Shown one piece after another: positions 39,752 to 49,018 of a DNA stretch of 64,000 nt (positions are counted from its first letter, which is position 1; each line of letters starts with the position of its first letter). The stretch is from the NCBI GenBank assembly GCA_963779005.1, contig CAVZWO010000006.1:362125-426124 (forward strand), read 5' to 3'. The translations under genes and the position numbers were made by a program. The DNA is from an uncultured Acidobacteriota bacterium (GTDB lineage: Bacteria; Acidobacteriota; Terriglobia; Acidiferrales; UBA7541). Under the pieces are notes generated by a model that saw nothing but the letters and a program-made list of their open reading frames with translations, was not told the DNA's origin and ran no database searches.

Positions 39752-40285
39752 ATGAGCCTTACTCTTCGAACCAAGAAAAACATTGTGAGTGCGGCGATGA
39801 CGGTTGTGTTGCTACTAGCGGGACGCAGTTCTGCGCGCGCCACGGAGCAACCGCGGGCCCCGAGCGTTAGCCGGCCTGGCGGGACAACGACGGTTGGAAG
39901 GATCGAGATTCCGGCGGTTGGTCTCGCCACACGGGTGCTCGAAGGTTCCGATGCAAGTACGCTTCAGCTGGCCGTTGGACATATCCCGGGCACCGCTCTC
40001 CCTGGTCCCTCCGGCAACGTCGGCCTTGCGGGCCATCGGGATACTTTTTTTCGTTCCTTGCGAAAGATCAAAGCAGGAGACGAAATTCGGCTTACCACCT
40101 CGGCGGGCACGTTCAAATATCGAGTGGTTTCCCTGCGTGTGGTTCTTCCTGATGCCATCGAGGTTCTGAATGCTACGAGGTCGCCGACATTGACGCTGGT
40201 AACCTGCTACCCGTTTGATTTTGCCGGCACGGCGCCACAGCGGTTGATCGTTCATGCCGAGATGGTCCGCAATACGCTGAACTGA
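39752..40285 (+). CDS. Sortase, class D-like
   Basis: GRIEIPAVGL, GNVGLAGHRDTFF, LTLVTCYPF, PQRLIV (His/Cys/Arg triad). Confidence 0.92.
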   Translation: MSLTLRTKKNIVSAAMTVVLLLAGRSSARATEQPRAPSVSRPGGTTTVGRIEIPAVGLATRVLEGSDASTLQLAVGHIPGTALPGPSGNVGLAGHRDTFFRSLRKIKAGDEIRLTTSAGTFKYRVVSLRVVLPDAIEVLNATRSPTLTLVTCYPFDFAGTAPQRLIVHAEMVRNTLN

Positions 40286-40449: not shown

Positions 40450-41267
40450 CTAGCGTGTGGGGGAAGTGGTTTTCGCAGCCGGAGAATTGGTCGCGGGCTT
40501 TGGCGAAGGAGCAGGAGCGCGTTTTTTTAATTCGTCGATGCGCTTCTCGTATAAATCGGTGAGGCAGTCGATCCAACCCTTATAGGGAGCACATTGTTTG
40601 TCGCGGTTTATAAGCCACGCGCGCTGCTCGGCTATGGGGACATCGCGATCTGCCGGGGAGAGCTTGGCAAGCAGGGCTGTGTAAGCTGCGCCTAGTTGCA
40701 CATCCAAGGTGGCCAGTTCTTCGACATGGCATATAGCGTTTTCCACTTCGCTTAAGGATTTCTTGCAGTCATAGCTCGTGGGAAAGATGCCGGTCTTGTG
40801 GATAGAATCCACGGCGAATTCCTTGCCGTTCCATTTGTAGCGGATGATGAGGGAATTTTGGCGCGGGAGGGATCGTCCTCGAAATTGGCGACGAGCAAGC
40901 CGTTTTCGACGACGAGATCGTAATTGCGGTTGCCAAACATGTTGTCGTAGGTTTTGGGGTCGACTTCGGCGATTTTCATTTCTTTCAACTCGCCGTCGGA
41001 GTTTCGTGCGAGCACGGAATGGATGTCGGGTCCGCCAGTGCCGCTCATGCAGGTTCCGGCGATCACGATAGCCTGCTGGGTGCCGTCTCCTTTGAAGTCG
41101 TAGTAGTCCACCTTCCAGAAATGCGGCGGTTGATCAGCGGGGCATTCTTCCATTCGATTGGTCCACTTCGCGATTTCATCCTTTTCGATTGGCTTTGATT
41201 TTTGCGCGTGAGCGCAGGGAATGACGAAGAGGAGAAGCAACGCGGCGAACGAACGAGCGAGTTTCAT
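40450..41267 (-). pseudogene. Secreted protein with a C-terminal LprI (DUF1311)-like domain, split by a 1-nt frameshift near 40855-40875
   Basis: ORF 41267-40752 (signal peptide) continues in the -1 frame as NSLIIRYKW..PTSYDCKKS..VENAIC..EL..LD..L..AY..QRAWL..RD..C. Confidence 0.7.
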
Positions 41268-41369: not shown

Positions 41370-43841
41370 CTACTCGGCGCGGAGCGCTTCGACGGGATCG
41401 ACGGTGGCGGCGCGGCGTGAGGGCAGATAGCTGGCCACGAACGCGGTGGCGACCAGGCCGAGCGTGACGGCGATGTAGGTGAGGGGGTCCATGGCGCTGA
41501 CGTGAAAGAGCAACGAGGACATAAGGCGCACGGCGAACAGGGCGATGAGCAGACCAAAGGCGGCGCCGACGCTGGCGAGAATGAGGCCGTGTCGAACGAA
41601 CATGTTGGTTACGGTTTTTGTTTGTGCGCCGAGGGCCATGCGGATGCCGATTTCGCGGACGCGCTGCGAGACAGAATAGGCGACGACGCCATAGATGCCG
41701 ACAACGCCGAGAAGCAAAGCCATGGCACCGGCAACGGCCAGCATGATCAGGGTAAAAGAAGTGCGCGCCATGGATTCCCGGTAGAAAGACTGCATGGTAT
41801 CGACGCGGGACAGGGGGAGATTGGGGTTGATGGACCAAACAGCTTCGCGCAGTTCCTTCAAAAACGCTTGCGAGCCGGCGCGTGGGCTGCGTACTCCAAA
41901 CCGGGTATAACTTTCGACGCGGTGAGCCTGACCCTCGAAGCGCTCGAGTAAAGGCGGCCAATAGCACATCGAGGGCGGAGCCTTGGTAACGCCGTCGCCG
42001 TAGACATCGGTGACCACGCCGATGATTTCGCGCCAGTCATCGGTGCTGGCAACGCGAATGCGCTTGCCGAGAGCGTTGGCAGGAGACTGCCAGTAGTCGC
42101 GGGCAAAATTTTCCGAAATGAGAACGACGGGACGTTTCTGATAGACGTCGTCCCAGTTGATATCCCGGCCGGCCAGCAGCGGCGTGCCAACGGTGGAGAA
42201 GAAGCCAGGAGTGATGAAGGCAAAACGGCGAAGAGGAGGAAACTGGCCATCGGCAAGAGGGTGGTCTTCGGCATAGACGACATCGTTGTTGGAGCTGCCG
42301 TCCATGGGGAAAAGAGTGGAAGTGGCGACGGAGGAAACGCCGGGAATGGCCGCGATTTTCTCGCGCATGGCCTGGAAGCTGCGGATGACGGCTTCATCGG
42401 ACTTAATCTGATTCTCGGGAATGTTGATGCTGAAGGATTGCACGGTGGCAGGATCGGTGAAGCCAGGATTGACGCGGGTAATGGCGCGGAAGGTGCGGAT
42501 CATCAGGCCGGAGCAGATAAGGAGAACGAGAGCGAGCGCGACTTGCACGACGACGAGGACGCTGCGAACGCGATGCTGTTCGCGGCTTTGGCTGTTGCCG
42601 CGGCCGCCCTGGCGGATGCCGGTGTTCAGATGGACGCCCGCGTATTTGAAGACGGGGATGGCGCCAAAAAGGAGGCTGGCGAGGAGAGCGAGGACCAGGG
42701 TGAAGAGGAGCACAGGACCGTCGATGCCGATTTCGTTGAGGCGGGGAAGACCGGCGGGAGAAAGAGCGATGAGAATGCGGAGCGCGGCATAGGCGAGACC
42801 GAGTCCGATGGCGCTACCGAGTAAGCCTAGAATGACACTCTCGAAGAGGAGTTCTCCAGCGATGCGATAAGGGCCAGCGCCGAGGGCGGAGCGGACAGCA
42901 AGCTCCTGGCGGCGGCCTTCGACGCGGACGAGGAGGAGATTGGCGACGTTGGCGCAAGCAATGAGCAGAACCATGCCAATGGAGCCCATGAGGACCCAGA
43001 GCATGCTGCCGACGTCACCAACAACCTGGTTTTTGAGGGGATGAAGATTTGGGCCGATGTGGGCATCGTCAAAAAGTTTGGCGCTAAAGCCTGGCGGGGC
43101 GGGGAAGGAACGCACGACAAGAGGAAGCATGCGGGCGATGTCGGCGTTGGCTTGCTGAAGGGTGACGCCGGGCTTGAGGCGGGCGAGGCCTTGCTGGCTG
43201 AAATTGCCTAGGGTGGTTTTGCCGCGGTCCCACTTGAAGGGGAGAATGACGGCGGGATCCTGAAAATCGAGGAAGTGGAATTTGGCGGGCATGACGCCGA
43301 TGATTTGGTACGAAGCGCCGTCCAGCAGGATGTTCTGACCGAGGACGGAGGGCGCTCCGGCGAATTGTTTCTTCCAGAAGCCGTAGGTGATGATGACGGT
43401 ATCGGGCGCGCCTGGAGAGTCGTCCTGACGGGTGAAGGTGCGGCCGAGCAGCGGGGGAATGCCAAGGAGAGGAAGGGTGCCGTCGGTGACGTTGAGAGAG
43501 TCGATGCGTTCCGGCTGGGCGACGCCAGTCAGGGCGACGCGGCCGCCGCTATAAACGCCAACGTCCTGGAAGCTTTGGTTCTGCTCGCGGTATATGAAGT
43601 AGTTGGAGGGGGACATGTTGAGATCGTCGATGCCGATACCGGGAGCGGTGTGCCAGACGGCAACGAGTTCATTGGGTTTGGGGTAGGGGAGAGGCTTGAG
43701 GAGTACGCCTTCGAGGACGCTGAAGACAACGGTGTTGCCGCCGACGCCGGCGGCGAGAGTGATGAGCGTGATCGCGGTGAAGAGGGGCGCTTTGAGGAGG
43801 CGGCGTAAGACTTGTTTCATTTCGACCAGCAATGTTCGCAT
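41370..43841 (-). CDS. ADOP-family duplicated ABC permease (MacB/FtsX-like)
   Basis: Two MacB_PCD-FtsX halves; LLIACANVANLLL.R...RRQELAVRSALGAG, VSQRVREIGIRMALGA, RRAATVDPVEALRAE; start ATG 43841. Confidence 0.95.
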   Translation of the reverse strand: MRTLLVEMKQVLRRLLKAPLFTAITLITLAAGVGGNTVVFSVLEGVLLKPLPYPKPNELVAVWHTAPGIGIDDLNMSPSNYFIYREQNQSFQDVGVYSGGRVALTGVAQPERIDSLNVTDGTLPLLGIPPLLGRTFTRQDDSPGAPDTVIITYGFWKKQFAGAPSVLGQNILLDGASYQIIGVMPAKFHFLDFQDPAVILPFKWDRGKTTLGNFSQQGLARLKPGVTLQQANADIARMLPLVVRSFPAPPGFSAKLFDDAHIGPNLHPLKNQVVGDVGSMLWVLMGSIGMVLLIACANVANLLLVRVEGRRQELAVRSALGAGPYRIAGELLFESVILGLLGSAIGLGLAYAALRILIALSPAGLPRLNEIGIDGPVLLFTLVLALLASLLFGAIPVFKYAGVHLNTGIRQGGRGNSQSREQHRVRSVLVVVQVALALVLLICSGLMIRTFRAITRVNPGFTDPATVQSFSINIPENQIKSDEAVIRSFQAMREKIAAIPGVSSVATSTLFPMDGSSNNDVVYAEDHPLADGQFPPLRRFAFITPGFFSTVGTPLLAGRDINWDDVYQKRPVVLISENFARDYWQSPANALGKRIRVASTDDWREIIGVVTDVYGDGVTKAPPSMCYWPPLLERFEGQAHRVESYTRFGVRSPRAGSQAFLKELREAVWSINPNLPLSRVDTMQSFYRESMARTSFTLIMLAVAGAMALLLGVVGIYGVVAYSVSQRVREIGIRMALGAQTKTVTNMFVRHGLILASVGAAFGLLIALFAVRLMSSLLFHVSAMDPLTYIAVTLGLVATAFVASYLPSRRAATVDPVEALRAE

Positions 43842-44059
43842 GGACGCAACCCCCAGGACGCGAAACTTGAAAGATTTGACTGCTGCTGCAAGCCGCACTT
43901 CTATGTACGAAGACGCTTATGGAATGTTCCCATTAACCGCGGCGCGCAGAAACTAATTGCATCCAAATGCGTAATTGATGAGTGGTGCAAGGTAAAGCTG
44001 GCGGTTCGGGAGTGTTCAGAAGCTGCGGTGGGGTGTAGACTCGCGGAAGTGATGGGAAA

Positions 44060-45298
44060 ATGCCGCTTGTGGTGGCGGAAGGGGAGTTGAAGGCCGTGGG
44101 ACAGTCGATTCCCTTTGGACAACATATAGCAAGACCGCCGGTGGCGGTGCGGGTGGGTGCGGGAGTTGGCGCGCGTGTCGAGTCCGTGCCGTGGACGATC
44201 TGGTGCATGGTGGCGGGAGTTGTCAGCGGGATGATCGGCGGGCCGTGGGATATTTCGTGGCACATGTCGATCGGGCGAGACACGTTTTGGACTCCGGCGC
44301 ACATCATGATTCAGATGACCGGGGTGCTGGTGGGAATCGCGTGCGGATACATGATTTTGGCGGCGACGTTTGGGCATGACGCGGCGAGGCAGGAAGCGTC
44401 GGTGAAGATTTGGGGATTTCGCGGGCCTCTCGGCGCGTTCATTGCAGTGTGGGGATGCATTGCGATGCTGACGTCGGCGCCGTTCGATAATTGGTGGCAC
44501 AACGCGTATGGGCTGGACGTGAAAATTGTGAGCCCGCCGCACACTTTGCTTTCGCTCGGTTCGCTTTCCATCAAGATTGGGTTGATGGCGTTGATGGCCG
44601 GGTTGATGAACCGCGCTTCGGATGGCGTGCGCCGAACGCTGGGAGCACTTTTGCTTTTTATTGGCGCGGGGTGCGTGGCGCAGATGGGATTGATTCTGAC
44701 TGGCAGCACGTGGCCGACGGAGATGCACACCGCGGCGTGCTACTTGGCGGTGGCGATTGCGGCTCCAGCGGTGCTGATCGCGCCGGCGTGGGGTTCCCGG
44801 TGGCGATGGGGTTGCACGGTTGTTGCGGGGATCTATACGGCAGTGCTGCTGGCGTTCGAATGGATACTGCCGTTGTTTCCGGCGGAGCCAAAGCTGGGGC
44901 CGGTCTATCAGCACGTCACGCATTTAGTGCCACTGCGATTTCCGCTGCTCCTGATTGTGCCTGCGTTCGTCCTGGATCTTTTGTGGCGCAAGACGGGTGC
45001 ATGGGGAAGATGGAAGCTGGCGGCAGTGACGGGGCCGGCGCTTGTGCTGAGCTTCTTGGCGGTGCAGTGGCCATTTGCGAATTTTCTGATGTCGCCAGGG
45101 TCACGCAATTGGTTTTTCGGGACGGCGTACTTCGCGTATTTTGATCCGGCGAATATTCTTTATGATCCGTACAAGTTCCGAAATTTGGAAAGGCCGGGGC
45201 GGTTCTGGGCGTTGATGATGATGGCGCTCGTTTTCAGCGTGATTACAGCGCGGCTGGGATTCGCATGGGGAGATTGGATGCGGCGGCTGAGGCGGTGA
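44060..45298 (+). CDS. Polytopic membrane protein with PmoC/AmoC-like metal motifs and a PmoA/AmoA-like C-terminal half
   Basis: WDISWHMSIGRDTFWTPAH and FDNWWHNAYGLDVKIVSPPH; later WRWGCTVV..LLAFEWI, FPLLLIVPAFVLD, VTGPALVLSFLAVQWP; about 9-10 hydrophobic segments by eye. ORF is solid; family call is inference. Confidence 0.7.
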   Translation: MPLVVAEGELKAVGQSIPFGQHIARPPVAVRVGAGVGARVESVPWTIWCMVAGVVSGMIGGPWDISWHMSIGRDTFWTPAHIMIQMTGVLVGIACGYMILAATFGHDAARQEASVKIWGFRGPLGAFIAVWGCIAMLTSAPFDNWWHNAYGLDVKIVSPPHTLLSLGSLSIKIGLMALMAGLMNRASDGVRRTLGALLLFIGAGCVAQMGLILTGSTWPTEMHTAACYLAVAIAAPAVLIAPAWGSRWRWGCTVVAGIYTAVLLAFEWILPLFPAEPKLGPVYQHVTHLVPLRFPLLLIVPAFVLDLLWRKTGAWGRWKLAAVTGPALVLSFLAVQWPFANFLMSPGSRNWFFGTAYFAYFDPANILYDPYKFRNLERPGRFWALMMMALVFSVITARLGFAWGDWMRRLRR

Positions 45299-45337
45299 GC
45301 CGGGACAAGAGAAAAGAAAGAGAAGAAAGAAAAAAAT

Positions 45338-45372
45338 AACGCAGAGGCACGGAGTCAGCAGAGATTCGCAGA
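45338..45372. repeat. Degenerate GCAGAG periodic repeat in the gap between the two putative copper genes
   Basis: aacgcagaggcacggagtcagcagagattcgcagag, preceded by a purine-rich tract. Confidence 0.4.
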
Positions 45373-45417
45373 GCCGAAATCGGAAGAGAAGATACAGGGA
45401 TAGGGCTGAGGAGATAC

Positions 45418-46911
45418 ATGCGGCGACGGACGATCTGGATTTTTATACTGGTGTTGGTGGCGGCGATTTCGGTGAGCGCGCACGTGGGAAGCGCGGACGT
45501 GTTTTTTGAGGGAGATGCTGGGCCGTATCACCTTTACGTGACGGTACGCGTGCCTCAAGTGATTCCGGGGATCGCGGAAATTCAAGTGCGCAGCGCTTCG
45601 AATGATGTGGAGAAGGTCGAAATTGTTCCGATGCGGCTGAGCGGGGCGGGTTCGAACTTTCCTCCGACTCCGGACGTCGCGGAAAGATCGAAGCAAGATC
45701 CGCAATTCTTTACCGGAAGTTTGTGGCTGATGGAATCTGGAGCGCTGAAGGTGCGTGTTTCCGTGGAGGGCAGTAAAGGCAAGGGAGAACTTGCGGTGCC
45801 CGTACCGGCGTATGCACAGAGAACTCTTCCTATGGAGCGATCCCTCAGCGGCCTGCTGGGATTTTTGATGGTGTTTCTGGCGGTGGGTCTGGTGTTCATC
45901 GCAGGAGCGGCGTCGCGGGAAGGAAATCTGGAGCCGGGAGAGATGCCGTCGCCCGCGAGAGCAAGACGCGCCAGACTCGTGATGGTGATTACAGCGGTGA
46001 TCGTCCTGGGAATTATCTATCTGGGGAAAGCGTGGTGGGGCGCGGAAGCTTCGAACTACAAGCGAGGCGTCAATTTTTTCAAACCGCCGGAAGCGGAGAC
46101 GCAGCTCGTTAACGGAAATCGGCTGGTGATCCGAGCCAAGGGACAGGATCCGGAGTGGTCGAGAGAAGTAAAGATGGAAGACGTAATTCCGGATCACAGC
46201 CATCTGATGCACTTGTTTTTGATGAGCACGCCAGGGATGGAACGTATGTGGCATTTGCATCCGGAGCGAGGAGAGAGCGGATCGTTTGTGGACGAGCTGC
46301 CGAATATGCCGGCAGGGCACTACGAAGTGTTCGCGGACATCGTGGACAAGGCGGGTTTTCCCTGGACGCTGGTAGGGCAAGTGGATTTGCCGCAGATAAA
46401 TGGGAAGGCGCTTGCGGGGGATGACTCGACTTGGACGGGAACGGCGTTGGCAGCGCAGGCCGGCGATGCGACCGTCGCGCAACTTGCGGACGGTGGGCGG
46501 ATCGTTTGGGAAAAGGGAAGCGCGCCGTTGGTCGCGAATGCGGCGATGGTGTTCAAGTTCAGAGTTGAGGATAAGGACGGGAACCCCGCGAAAGATATGG
46601 AGCCGTACATGGGAATGGCCGGGCACGCGGAGTTCGTTAGCTCTGATATGAGCGTGTTTGCGCACATCCATCCGGCGGGCTCGGCTTCGATGGCCGCGCT
46701 GGATCTGGCGAACGGTACCCCTGCAGCGGGAGCTGTCGCCGCGGAAGGAAGCATGCCCAGCGGGATGGCCATGGCGATGCCGACGGGTGCGCTTGAGCCG
46801 GAAGTCACCTTTCCTTACGGTTTTCCCAAGGCCGGAGAGTACAGAATTTTCGTTCAAATCAAACGCGGTGGGCAAGTGGAAACCGGCGTCTTCGACGCTC
46901 ACGTACAGTGA
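45418..46911 (+). CDS. Putative copper-binding membrane protein: signal, N-terminal His, beta domain, 2 TM, two His-rich YtkA/Ig-like domains
   Basis: VSA-HVGS cleavage; TM LSGLLGFLMVFLAVGLVFIAG and LVMVITAVIVLGIIYLG; DHSHLMH..HLHP and GMAGH..HIHP; Met-rich loop; GAGGAG RBS. Confidence 0.72.
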   Translation: MRRRTIWIFILVLVAAISVSAHVGSADVFFEGDAGPYHLYVTVRVPQVIPGIAEIQVRSASNDVEKVEIVPMRLSGAGSNFPPTPDVAERSKQDPQFFTGSLWLMESGALKVRVSVEGSKGKGELAVPVPAYAQRTLPMERSLSGLLGFLMVFLAVGLVFIAGAASREGNLEPGEMPSPARARRARLVMVITAVIVLGIIYLGKAWWGAEASNYKRGVNFFKPPEAETQLVNGNRLVIRAKGQDPEWSREVKMEDVIPDHSHLMHLFLMSTPGMERMWHLHPERGESGSFVDELPNMPAGHYEVFADIVDKAGFPWTLVGQVDLPQINGKALAGDDSTWTGTALAAQAGDATVAQLADGGRIVWEKGSAPLVANAAMVFKFRVEDKDGNPAKDMEPYMGMAGHAEFVSSDMSVFAHIHPAGSASMAALDLANGTPAAGAVAAEGSMPSGMAMAMPTGALEPEVTFPYGFPKAGEYRIFVQIKRGGQVETGVFDAHVQ

Positions 46912-47021: not shown

Positions 47022-48494
47022 TTGGCGTATCGGGATTTGCGGGAGTTTGTCCAGAAGCTGGAGAAGGAAGGGGAGCTGAAGCGGATTCGCGCAGAAGTGG
47101 ACCCGATTCTGGAAATTACGGAAGTGACACAGCGGGTTGCGCGAGACAAGAACCGCTTGCCGGACAGCGTCGGTCCGGCTCTGCTCTTTGAGAAGCCGAA
47201 GGGTTCGCGTGTGCCGCTTTTGGTGAACACATTTGGCAGCGTGCGGCGCATGGCGCTGGCGTTTGAAGTGGGCGAATTGGACGAAGTGGCGGCGCGGATT
47301 CAGGGATTTTTGAAGATGGAGACGCCGCAGGGGCTCTTCGACAAAATCAAGATGTTGCCAAAGCTGGCGGAGTTGGGCTCATTTTTCCCCAAGACCGTGA
47401 AGTCAGGGCCGTGCAAGGAAGTGATGCACCACGGCACAGATGTGAACCTCTTTGATTTTCCGATTCTGAAATGCTGGCCGCAGGATGGCGGGCGCTTTAT
47501 CACGTTTCCGCTGGTATTCACGAAAAATCCGGAGACGGGCAAGCGCAATGTTGGGATGTACCGGATGCAAGTCTACGACGAACGAACGACCGGGATGCAC
47601 TGGCAGACACAAAAACACGGCGCGGAACACTTCCGGCGCGCGAGGGCTAAAAATCCGGAAGGGCGCATCTCTGTAAGCGTAGCGATTGGTGCGGATCCTG
47701 CCACGGCGCTTTCGGGAATGCTCCCGATTCCTCCGGATTTGGACGAAATGATGTTCGCAGGGTTCTTGCGCCGCGAACCCGTCGAGATGGTGCCGTGCGA
47801 GACAAATGATCTCGAAGTTCCCGCGAACGCAGAAGTCGTTCTGGAAGGCTATGTGAATTTGAACGAAATGCGTACGGAAGGGCCGTTCGGCGATCACACG
47901 GGATTCTATTCGCTGGAAGGGGAGTATCCCGTTTTTCATGTGGAGTGTGTGACGCACAAGAAGGACCCCATCTACCTCACCACAGTGGTGGGGCCGCCGC
48001 CGCAGGAAGACTATTACATGGGCTACGCGGTCGAGCGCGTGTTTCTGCCGGTGATGAAGATGCAGTATCCGGAAATTGTGGATGTGGCGATGCCGGCCGA
48101 GGGAATTTTCCACAACCTGATGATTGTGGCGATTCGCAAGTCCTACCCGGGACACGCGCGCAAAATCATGAACGCGATTTGGTCGCTGGGCCAGGCGATG
48201 TTCACAAAAGTTATTGTCGTGGTGGACCACGACGTGAACGTACGCAACTATAGCGAAGTGGTCTGGAAGGCTCTGTGCGCCCTCGACCCCGAGCGCGACG
48301 TGCAATTCTCTTTAGGGCCCGTGGACACGCTGGATCACGCGCAAAGAATGCAGGACTACGGTTCGAAAATGGGAATCGACGCGACGCGCAAGTGGGAGAC
48401 GGAAGGATTCACGCGCCCGTGGCCGGATGAAATCCTGATGGATGAGGCAACACGCGCGCGCATCGCCGCCATCTGGAAAACATTGCAACTGTGA
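47022..48494 (+). CDS. ubiD: UbiD-family (prFMN) decarboxylase, probably quinone biosynthesis
   Basis: YRDLREF...LE..GEL, NVGMYRMQ, MHWQ..KHG, EGPFGDHTGFY, VGPPPQED, SKMGIDAT; TTG start with GGAGG. Confidence 0.92.
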   Translation: MAYRDLREFVQKLEKEGELKRIRAEVDPILEITEVTQRVARDKNRLPDSVGPALLFEKPKGSRVPLLVNTFGSVRRMALAFEVGELDEVAARIQGFLKMETPQGLFDKIKMLPKLAELGSFFPKTVKSGPCKEVMHHGTDVNLFDFPILKCWPQDGGRFITFPLVFTKNPETGKRNVGMYRMQVYDERTTGMHWQTQKHGAEHFRRARAKNPEGRISVSVAIGADPATALSGMLPIPPDLDEMMFAGFLRREPVEMVPCETNDLEVPANAEVVLEGYVNLNEMRTEGPFGDHTGFYSLEGEYPVFHVECVTHKKDPIYLTTVVGPPPQEDYYMGYAVERVFLPVMKMQYPEIVDVAMPAEGIFHNLMIVAIRKSYPGHARKIMNAIWSLGQAMFTKVIVVVDHDVNVRNYSEVVWKALCALDPERDVQFSLGPVDTLDHAQRMQDYGSKMGIDATRKWETEGFTRPWPDEILMDEATRARIAAIWKTLQL

Positions 48495-48665: not shown

Positions 48666-48820
48666 TAAGGCAACTCCGGAAGAGAATCCCTTGACGCTCT
48701 GAGGTTTGGAATGTCATAAAGCATGCACGGGCCGCACCTCCAGTAATCCGCAGCGCAGCAGGGGTGCCCTTGGCAGTGGTGGGTTTGGCGTGCGTTTGCG
48801 GCGCCGGGGTGACGTTCCTC

Positions 48821-49018
48821 GTGAATGAATCGCGTGAAGTGATGAATGTGAGACAGGCGTCGCAGTATCTGGGTATCTCCCCGGATACCCTGTACCGTTA
48901 CATCACGGAAGGCGAAATTCCAGCATTCAAACTTGGTAATCGTTGGAAACTGCGTAAGACGATTCTGGACCGCTGGATGGAACGCAAGATGAGCCAGGCG
49001 CACGCGAGGCGCCGATAG
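48821..49018 (+). CDS. HTH_17 (excisionase-like) DNA-binding protein
   Basis: EVMNVRQASQYLGIS.DTLYRY..EGEIPAFKLGNRWK. Confidence 0.88.
   Translation: MNESREVMNVRQASQYLGISPDTLYRYITEGEIPAFKLGNRWKLRKTILDRWMERKMSQAHARRR

Follow-up and report, generated by a model that had tools for sequence, protein, structure and literature searches.

We describe here a pair of genes in a 64,000-nucleotide stretch of DNA (the window) from an uncultured Acidobacteriota bacterium of the order Acidiferrales (contig CAVZWO010000006.1). The second gene of the pair, the target of this analysis, occupies 45418..46911 on the plus strand and encodes a protein of 497 residues made up of a signal peptide, a first domain (D1), a transmembrane (TM) hairpin and two further domains (D2 and D3). 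On balance, and with some caution, we favour its being the periplasm-facing, membrane-anchored subunit of a two-gene complex very distantly related to the copper membrane monooxygenases (CuMMOs), such as particulate methane monooxygenase (pMMO) and ammonia monooxygenase (AMO). The other member of the complex would be the polytopic membrane protein encoded by the preceding gene (44060..45298, plus strand), here called the partner. The pair is best described as a divergent CuMMO-like variant and, by analogy, the most likely role of the target is that of PmoB in pMMO. We infer the cleavage between A21 and H22, copper as the metal, the interaction between the two proteins and any catalytic activity that they may have.

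An earlier note, made from the DNA letters and their translations, had proposed that the target was a copper-loading or accessory subunit with a PmoB-like architecture. The proposal is partly supported: such a role is plausible, and the analogy with PmoB is strengthened because the partner carries the CuC and CuD motifs of PmoC in colinear order and because its model matches PmoA and AmoA folds. Neither of the two families has a Pfam or NCBIfam model, or an informative name in the public databases, and a search of the full-text literature on PmoB- and PmoC-like proteins, divergent CuMMOs of Acidobacteria and fusions found no description of the target family.

The partner protein and the metal sites of PmoC

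In pMMO the CuC site is formed by Asp156, His160 and His173 of PmoC, with Arg165 nearby, and the CuD site by Asn227, His231 and His245 of the same subunit (PMC12576850). The partner contains two motifs whose spacings are exactly those of CuC (D-x3-H-x12-H) and CuD (N/D-x3-H-x13-H). The first, D64-x3-H68-x4-R73-x7-H81 (WDISWHMSIGRDTFWTPAH; 44249..44302, plus strand), is placed by prediction where helices 1 and 2 end on the periplasmic side, and the second, D143-x3-H147-x13-H161 (FDNWWHNAYGLDVKIVSPPH; 44486..44542, plus strand), where helices 3 and 4 do so. The helices are those of an AlphaFold2 (AF2) model, ten in number, with a predicted local distance difference test (pLDDT) score of 83.9, and the positive-inside rule puts the N-terminus in the cytoplasm, so that both Asp/His/His motifs come to lie on the periplasmic face of the membrane. 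Two family alignments agree in the invariance of D64, H68, R73, D74, H81, D143, H147, D153, H161 and H223. Clusters of partner homologues number at least 8000; no Pfam domain is present in any of them, and none bears a name informative as to function. Although the open reading frame as listed has 412 residues, translation probably begins at the GTG at 44096 (residue 13), since relatives have about 396-400 residues; the conserved core starts at about residue 41.

Profile comparison with hhalign was based on family alignments of PmoA, PmoB and PmoC built from 80 pmoCAB loci. The N-terminal half of the partner (residues 41-186) gave a single colinear alignment with PmoC over 133 columns (E 4.7e-5, probability 68%), superposing D64, H68, R73 and H81 on Asp156, His160, Arg165 and His173 of PmoC, and D143, H147 and H161 on Asn227, His231 and His245. 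The identity to PmoC is 58% over the 19 columns of the CuC-like stretch. The score of this alignment, 36.0, may be compared with 13.4 +/- 2.4 (maximum 22.7) for 60 column shuffles, corresponding to z=9.5, and with 9.1 for a control using the reversed alignment. Judged by these comparisons, homology between the N-terminal four-helix core of the partner and the metal-binding core of PmoC is well supported. Pfam AmoC (PF04896) also responds weakly to the CuC-like motif, at E 0.0011 for one family member and E 0.065 for the family consensus; the consensus match, with 13 bits against a cutoff of 26.7 and limited to HMM positions 117-148, is below threshold. The partner thus shares with PmoC and AmoC both metal-site motifs at the same spacing and retains the equivalent of Arg165, and differs from PmoC in having no counterpart of its N-terminal helices and in presenting Asp in place of Asn227.

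When the partner model was compared with the PDB using Foldseek, the five best matches were all AmoA or PmoA chains (9cl6_B, 6cxh_B, 9leg_A, 7s4h_B and 3rfr_B), with probabilities of 0.99-1.0 over 234-272 aligned columns and TM(target) values of 0.44-0.54. The PmoC chain 7yzy_C was found at rank 35 (probability 0.72, 142 columns), and no match other than these had a meaningful probability. The identities of the PDB chains were checked with PmoA, PmoB and PmoC probes, each 100% identical to chains from M. capsulatus (Bath). It is from the fold search alone that the partner model appears PmoA-like. By hhalign the N-terminal half gave E 0.2 with PmoA, and the C-terminal half E 0.53 with PmoC; Pfam AMO (PF02461) had no match in the partner family and the partner profile none among PDB sequences. 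A Foldseek comparison with viral structures (BFVD), in which viral AmoC or PmoC were sought, produced no meaningful match.

The partner is a single protein of 400 residues, whereas PmoC and PmoA are two of about 250 residues each, and an attractive hypothesis is that it represents a PmoC-PmoA fusion, colinear with pmoC-pmoA. We take this no further than a hypothesis because the alignment of the C-terminal half with PmoA (E 0.027, 217 columns) has a shuffle z of 2.1, which is not significant. Alternatively, helices 1-7 could constitute a single PmoA/PmoC-like unit, supplemented by three extra helices.

A separate observation concerns PmoA itself. Two loops of the M. capsulatus (Bath) protein, GDWDFWSDWKDRRLW and GEWINRYFNFWGW (residues 46-60 and 99-111, respectively), when set against residues 62-77 and 142-152 of the partner, resemble degenerate versions, free of His, of the metal motifs of PmoC and the partner at equivalent helix ends. 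This hints at an ancient paralogy between PmoA and PmoC, although the N-terminal half of the partner gives only E 0.2 with PmoA.

Architecture and conserved residues of the target

The target opens with a predicted signal peptide of residues 1-21 (45418..45480, plus strand), whose hydrophobic core spans residues 3-30 and which ends in V-S-A; the N-terminus reads MRRRTIWIFILVLVAAISVSA and then HVGS. Cleavage between A21 and H22, to which both the -3/-1 rule and conservation point, would make His22 (codon 45481-45483) the first residue of the mature chain. D1 covers residues 22-135 (45481..45822) and begins with this conserved His; it is recognised from the AF2 model, Foldseek and profile comparison as a CopC/CrdA-like β-sandwich. 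There follows the TM hairpin (45838..46077), seen in both hydropathy and the AF2 model, with helices at residues 141-168 and 179-220 and a short Arg-rich turn predicted to be cytoplasmic. D2 (residues 221-330; 46078..46407) is a β-sandwich delimited by the AF2 model and conservation, and D3 (residues 345-497; 46450..46908), defined by hhalign and conservation, is its paralogue; all of these lie on the plus strand.

The AF2 model of the target was built from an alignment of 63 diverse relatives and has a mean pLDDT of 92.2 and a predicted TM-score (pTM) of 0.88. It places the D1 strands within residues 28-131, the helices at 141-168 and 179-220, and two further β domains at 225-324 and 337-496. 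In the hydropathy profile the signal segment stands out, as do two strong TM segments (residues 141-168 and 182-209), and W206 and W207 are conserved at the point where the hairpin exits to the periplasm. D1, D2 and D3 are all predicted to be periplasmic, because the signal peptide would be cleaved and an Arg-rich turn lies between the TM helices. All of the elements that the earlier note had read from the letters are found at the coordinates it gave: the open reading frame, the signal peptide ending VSA and the HVGS start at 45481 are all present, the cleavage being predicted; the β-rich N-terminal domain is recovered in the model; and the range of about 45844-46038 given for two TM helices is covered by those of the hairpin.

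The two similar His-rich units that the earlier note had described are truly homologous, the family profiles of D2 and D3 aligning in hhalign with a probability of 90% and E 1.6e-6; BLASTP between the two units of the target itself gives E 0.078 only. Conservation defines a motif in each, D259-H260-x4-H265 ... H279-x-H281-P282 in D2 (46192..46263, plus strand) and Y397-M398-G-M400-x2-H403 ... H416-x-H418-P419 in D3 (46606..46674, plus strand). The profile alignment pairs H403, H416 and H418 of D3 with H265, H279 and H281 of D2, and M398 and M400 with H260 and H262. Compared with the PDB, the D2 and D3 profiles gave chance matches only, and no relative outside the family was detected. Neither the whole target nor any of its domains taken singly had a match in Pfam, NCBIfam or the PDB sequences.

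At 90% identity the homologues of the target fall into 4863 clusters, and at 50% identity they are represented by 2862 sequences, of which 530 have E <1e-30; the species genomes with relatives number at least 594. Most hosts are Acidobacteriota (Acidiferrales, Terriglobales and Bryobacterales), with some Binatota, Thermodesulfobacteriota and metagenome-assembled genomes (MAGs) labelled 'delta proteobacterium'. In the source databases the homologues are unnamed or called 'hypothetical protein', and none carries a Pfam domain. Conservation was counted in the 150 best representatives of the 50%-identity clusters. H22 is present in 124/130 (95%), and is preceded by A or G in 127/129. Also conserved in D1 are W103 (131/135) and M105 (130/138). 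The corresponding counts in D2 are 143/146 for H260, 145/147 for H265, 145/147 for H279, 146/147 for H281 and 148/148 for P282, and in D3 139/140 for M400, 138/140 for H403, 136/139 for H416 and 137/139 for H418; the C-terminal motif of D3, FPYxFPxxGxYR, is conserved as well. Each His-cluster residue of D2 and D3 is conserved in 97% or more of the representatives, including relatives of only about 33% identity; conservation of the target residues is far beyond chance. The earlier note had staked its interpretation on the conservation of H22 and the constancy of the His clusters among homologues, and both have held. Other His residues are poorly conserved, namely H38 (18/130), H262 (59/146, Lys being commoner) and H301 (16/148), while H495 is variable. 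A pairing of H22 with H38, one of the arrangements suggested earlier, is rejected as a feature of the family because H38 is not conserved.

D3 contains a variable loop enriched in Met and His (residues 427-462; 46696..46803, plus strand), recognised by its pLDDT and by the loop lengths of relatives, which range from 12 to 83 residues. The Met-rich insert previously noticed, SMPSGMAMAMP, is located within it (residues 445-455; 46750..46782, plus strand) and is overlapped by the sole low-confidence stretch of the model, residues 439-451 (pLDDT <50). Met and His together make up 11% of the loop, compared to 6.4% of the whole protein; at least three Met are present in 51/139 representatives and at least two His in 56/139.

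From these features a mechanism may be sketched. Cleavage would expose His22 on the CopC-like D1, where its amine and imidazole groups could together coordinate Cu(II), an arrangement known from CopC, PmoB and the lytic polysaccharide monooxygenases (LPMOs). The two-helix hairpin would serve as the membrane anchor. On adjacent strands of D2, H265, H279 and H281 plus H260 could form a His3(+His) site, and on adjacent strands of D3 a His3(+Met2) site could be formed by H403, H416 and H418 plus M398 and M400; the flexible Met/His loop of D3 would be typical of Cu(I) capture. The three domains would be positioned directly above the two Asp/His/His sites, CuC- and CuD-like, of the partner. In such a PmoB-like role the target would capture, hold, load or relay copper (or electrons) for the membrane-embedded sites, or take part in building the active complex, and would stabilise the complex.

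Other metals deserve a mention here, as Zn or Ni can also be bound by His3 clusters and by Asp/His/His sites. The target might have no role in copper chemistry, being instead an anchored, immunoglobulin (Ig)-like periplasmic protein that binds Zn, Ni or Fe, or a structural or sensor component for the partner. Foldseek matches of the whole target model are indeed chiefly to generic arrays of Ig and fibronectin type III (FN3) domains, with poor superposition, and the neighbourhood has neither a conserved copper gene nor a conserved regulator responsive to copper. However, an N-terminal His on a CopC-like fold, the near-invariant M400 and a Met-rich loop are typical of copper proteins and the partner motif matches the copper sites of pMMO. 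We consider the non-copper explanation very improbable.

Conservation of the gene pair

The partner gene precedes the target gene on the same strand in 81/83 loci, which come from the species genomes counted above (at least 594). The earlier note's expectation that the target and the upstream protein work together is thus not contradicted. The gap between the two among relatives has a median of 8 bp, with 11/75 pairs overlapping, and such short or overlapping gaps point to co-transcription of partner and target. The spacer in the window is a strongly purine-rich segment of 119 bp (45299..45417, plus strand; GAGAAAAGAAAGAGAAGAAAGAAAAAAA...) with no terminator-like site. It is unusually long when set against the gap of about 8 bp, or overlap, of most relatives, and might be a regulatory or leader element. 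Two loci depart from the general pattern: in that from a Candidatus Acidiferrum MAG (L008) no partner homologue is seen upstream of the target homologue, 5 kb of flank being present, and in the other (L007) the partner was detected by its C-terminal half only. Assembly artefact, masking artefact or real loss could each account for these exceptions.

A third gene is adjacent in part of the family. In 18 loci from Bryobacterales/Solibacteraceae (e.g. L032:6461-7279), a gene on the same strand for a short-chain dehydrogenase/reductase (SDR; adh_short) is found 8-42 bp downstream (194 bp in L045), and target, partner and SDR may constitute a clade-specific three-gene operon. A different SDR gene is convergent in four other loci (L052, L058, L060 and L066). 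The adjacency of the SDR would fit an oxidative pathway, though it is confined to those clades. In the loci of relatives, linkage that holds throughout is limited to the two genes of the pair; neither a reductase nor any further partner shares it.

Comparison with CopC and related copper proteins

Foldseek yielded one compact and specific match, to CrdA of Helicobacter pylori (9ll2_A), with a TM value of 0.65 over 107 columns and probability 1.0, the match covering CrdA over its full length. By sequence, too, 9ll2 is recovered with the family profile of D1 (E 0.0054). H. pylori CrdA is a CopC-family protein (PMC9182242). As CrdA is matched by both fold and profile, D1 is, in the model, a CopC-like Greek-key β-sandwich that keeps the N-terminal His. 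The features shared by D1 with the CopC family (PF04234) and CrdA are the Greek-key fold and a His residue that would come first after cleavage, as in classical CopC. The Pfam CopC model itself matches just 1/63 family members, at E 0.063, which is below threshold. YtkA-like (PF13115) matches D1 weakly, in 5/63 members with a best E of 9.7e-4, and the family consensus reaches E 0.041 with 15 bits against a cutoff of 25.9, again below the gathering threshold; weak FixH matches are also present among members of the target family. In contrast to CopC, D1 is joined in one chain to a TM hairpin and two additional domains, and the partner of the target resembles PmoC and PmoA and has no CopD signal.

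YcnJ/YtkA-type proteins of Bacillus have a CopC-CopD-YtkA architecture and are linked to copper. They have in common with the target a CopC-like N-terminal domain, a YtkA-like β-sandwich and membrane segments. The target differs from them in having no CopD domain and in that its YtkA matches are weak and fall on D1, while the His3 domains D2 and D3 belong to no Pfam family.

A rival explanation is that the pair does no more than move copper, as CopC/CopD or YcnJ would. In that case the target would be a membrane-tethered periplasmic chaperone and the partner a transporter or channel rather than an enzyme; the N-terminal His of D1 would take Cu(II) and the His/Met domains Cu(I), with copper passed to or from the partner. 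In keeping with this are the CopC/CrdA-like D1, the weak YtkA-like, CopC and FixH matches within the family, the flexible Met/His-enriched loop of D3, the near-core status of the gene pair in non-methanotrophic heterotrophs, and the want of any universally linked reductase or further partner. It sits less well with a partner that keeps both PmoC-type sites and the equivalent of Arg165 and that matches PmoA/AmoA folds, or with the missing DxH and Met loop of CopC in D1. Furthermore, the partner has no CopD (PF05425) signal, but no solved CopD structure was among the fold-library matches, and the fold of the partner may yet be CopD-like. We regard trafficking alone as possible, if rather unlikely.

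Comparison with PmoB

PmoB consists of a periplasmic β domain, two TM helices and a second periplasmic β domain, and its CuB ligands are the N-terminal His33 together with His137 and His139 (PMC12576850). The target resembles PmoB and AmoB in several respects: an N-terminal His exposed by signal-peptide cleavage (predicted in the case of the target), a periplasmic β domain followed by two TM helices and further periplasmic β structure, HxH motifs located on β strands, and a gene directly following that for a membrane subunit, or subunits, bearing PmoC-type metal ligands. The gene order, a C/A-like membrane protein and then a B-like protein, parallels that of pmoCAB. Since both its architecture and its position after a gene with PmoC motifs and a PmoA fold correspond, we regard the target as analogous to PmoB in function and position, the likeness being one of architecture and not of sequence; it may nevertheless be a PmoB homologue diverged beyond recognition. 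The differences are clear. HxH motifs are found in the domains after the TM hairpin in the target but in the N-terminal domain in PmoB, the target has two paralogous C-terminal domains whereas PmoB has a single cupredoxin, and D1 is nearer to CopC and CrdA than to PmoB.

A number of results weigh against a relationship of the pair to CuMMOs. Pfam Monooxygenase_B (PF04744) has no match in the target, in 63 relatives or in the family consensus. When the whole target and D1, D2 and D3 separately were compared by hhalign with PmoB of M. capsulatus (Bath) and with a 64-sequence PmoB alignment, the results (E 0.035-0.42) were neither significant nor colinear, and for this reason membership of the PmoB family by sequence is rejected and the target is not filed there. 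No PmoB chain is among the top 50 of 1805 Foldseek matches obtained with the whole three-domain model as query. D1 has no conserved HxH, so that the motif completing CuB is missing, and it also does without the conserved DxH and the Met loop of CopC, leaving the first residue of the predicted mature chain, His1, as its sole conserved candidate ligand. For the partner, the Foldseek E-values are modest (0.04-0.15), and to these may be added the insignificant shuffle score of its C-terminal half with PmoA. To our knowledge the hosts of the target (Terriglobia, Bryobacterales and Binatota) are not methane or ammonia oxidisers. Among sequencing runs, only DNA runs from soil and sediment were found to contain the target sequence, and no RNA runs. 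The earlier note's view that the N-domain has no HxH, and that the likeness to PmoB is architectural, is borne out by these comparisons.

The same evidence bears on a stronger claim, that the target is a true but extremely diverged PmoB orthologue in an active monooxygenase. D1 would in that case derive from the N-terminal cupredoxin of PmoB, and a CuB-type site would be reassembled between domains from His22 and an HxH of D2 or D3. The order of elements (signal peptide, N-terminal His, β domain, two TM helices, β domain) is that of PmoB, as are the gene position after C/A-like genes and the occurrence of HxH on β strands, and the downstream SDR in 18 Bryobacterales loci would suit oxidation of a hydroxylated product. 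Yet there is no sequence or profile signal to PmoB and no PmoB in the top 50 folds, D1 is closest to CopC/CrdA rather than PmoB, there are two C-terminal domains and not one, and the SDR linkage is seen in one clade only. Orthology of this kind we judge unlikely.

Genomic surroundings

The pair is followed in the window by a gene for a UbiD-family decarboxylase (47022..48494), an equivalog match to TIGR03701 (menaquinone, futalosine pathway) at E 2e-186. A functional link of the pair to this downstream UbiD/menaquinone decarboxylase was considered and rejected, synteny with the pair being restricted to close relatives. Further downstream are a small HTH_17/MerR-like open reading frame (48764..49018) and a type IV pilus assembly cluster, pilM-pilN-pilO-pilP-secretin (pilQ), extending to 54020. 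On the other side of the pair lie genes for a sortase-domain protein (39752..40285), an LprI-like protein (40450..40812, minus strand), a secreted protein whose family was not recognised (40752..41267, minus strand) and a MacB/FtsX-type ABC permease of 842 residues (41370..43898, minus strand), this last divergent from the pair.

Significance

Key steps in the cycling of methane and nitrogen are controlled by CuMMOs (pMMO, AMO and the hydrocarbon monooxygenases), and debate continues about their active site and about what the copper site of PmoB does. Against this background, the pair retains the CuC/CuD ligands of PmoC beside a B-type subunit of a very different kind, and it occurs in thousands of soil bacteria not known as oxidisers of methane or ammonia. 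We tentatively entertain the possibility that it goes further than a distant relationship, and that the two genes are a deeply divergent, previously unrecognised CuMMO branch in which a C/A-like membrane subunit and a PmoB-analogous subunit would carry out oxidation with copper and O2. The membrane subunit would then combine a PmoC-type CuC/CuD core with PmoA-like helices, possibly as an ancestral or a fused C-A protein colinear with pmoC-pmoA, and the PmoB-analogous subunit would consist of the CopC-like domain with its N-terminal His and the two duplicated His3 domains. Were this so, copper- and O2-dependent oxidation would extend to abundant soil Acidobacteriota, Binatota and their relatives.

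If the relationship to CuMMOs that we favour is true, the pair would supply an outgroup for the study of CuMMO evolution, including the question of whether A and C stem from one protein, and a natural test of which metal sites are indispensable. It would also provide a candidate copper-dependent oxidation or copper-handling function in dominant soil phyla.

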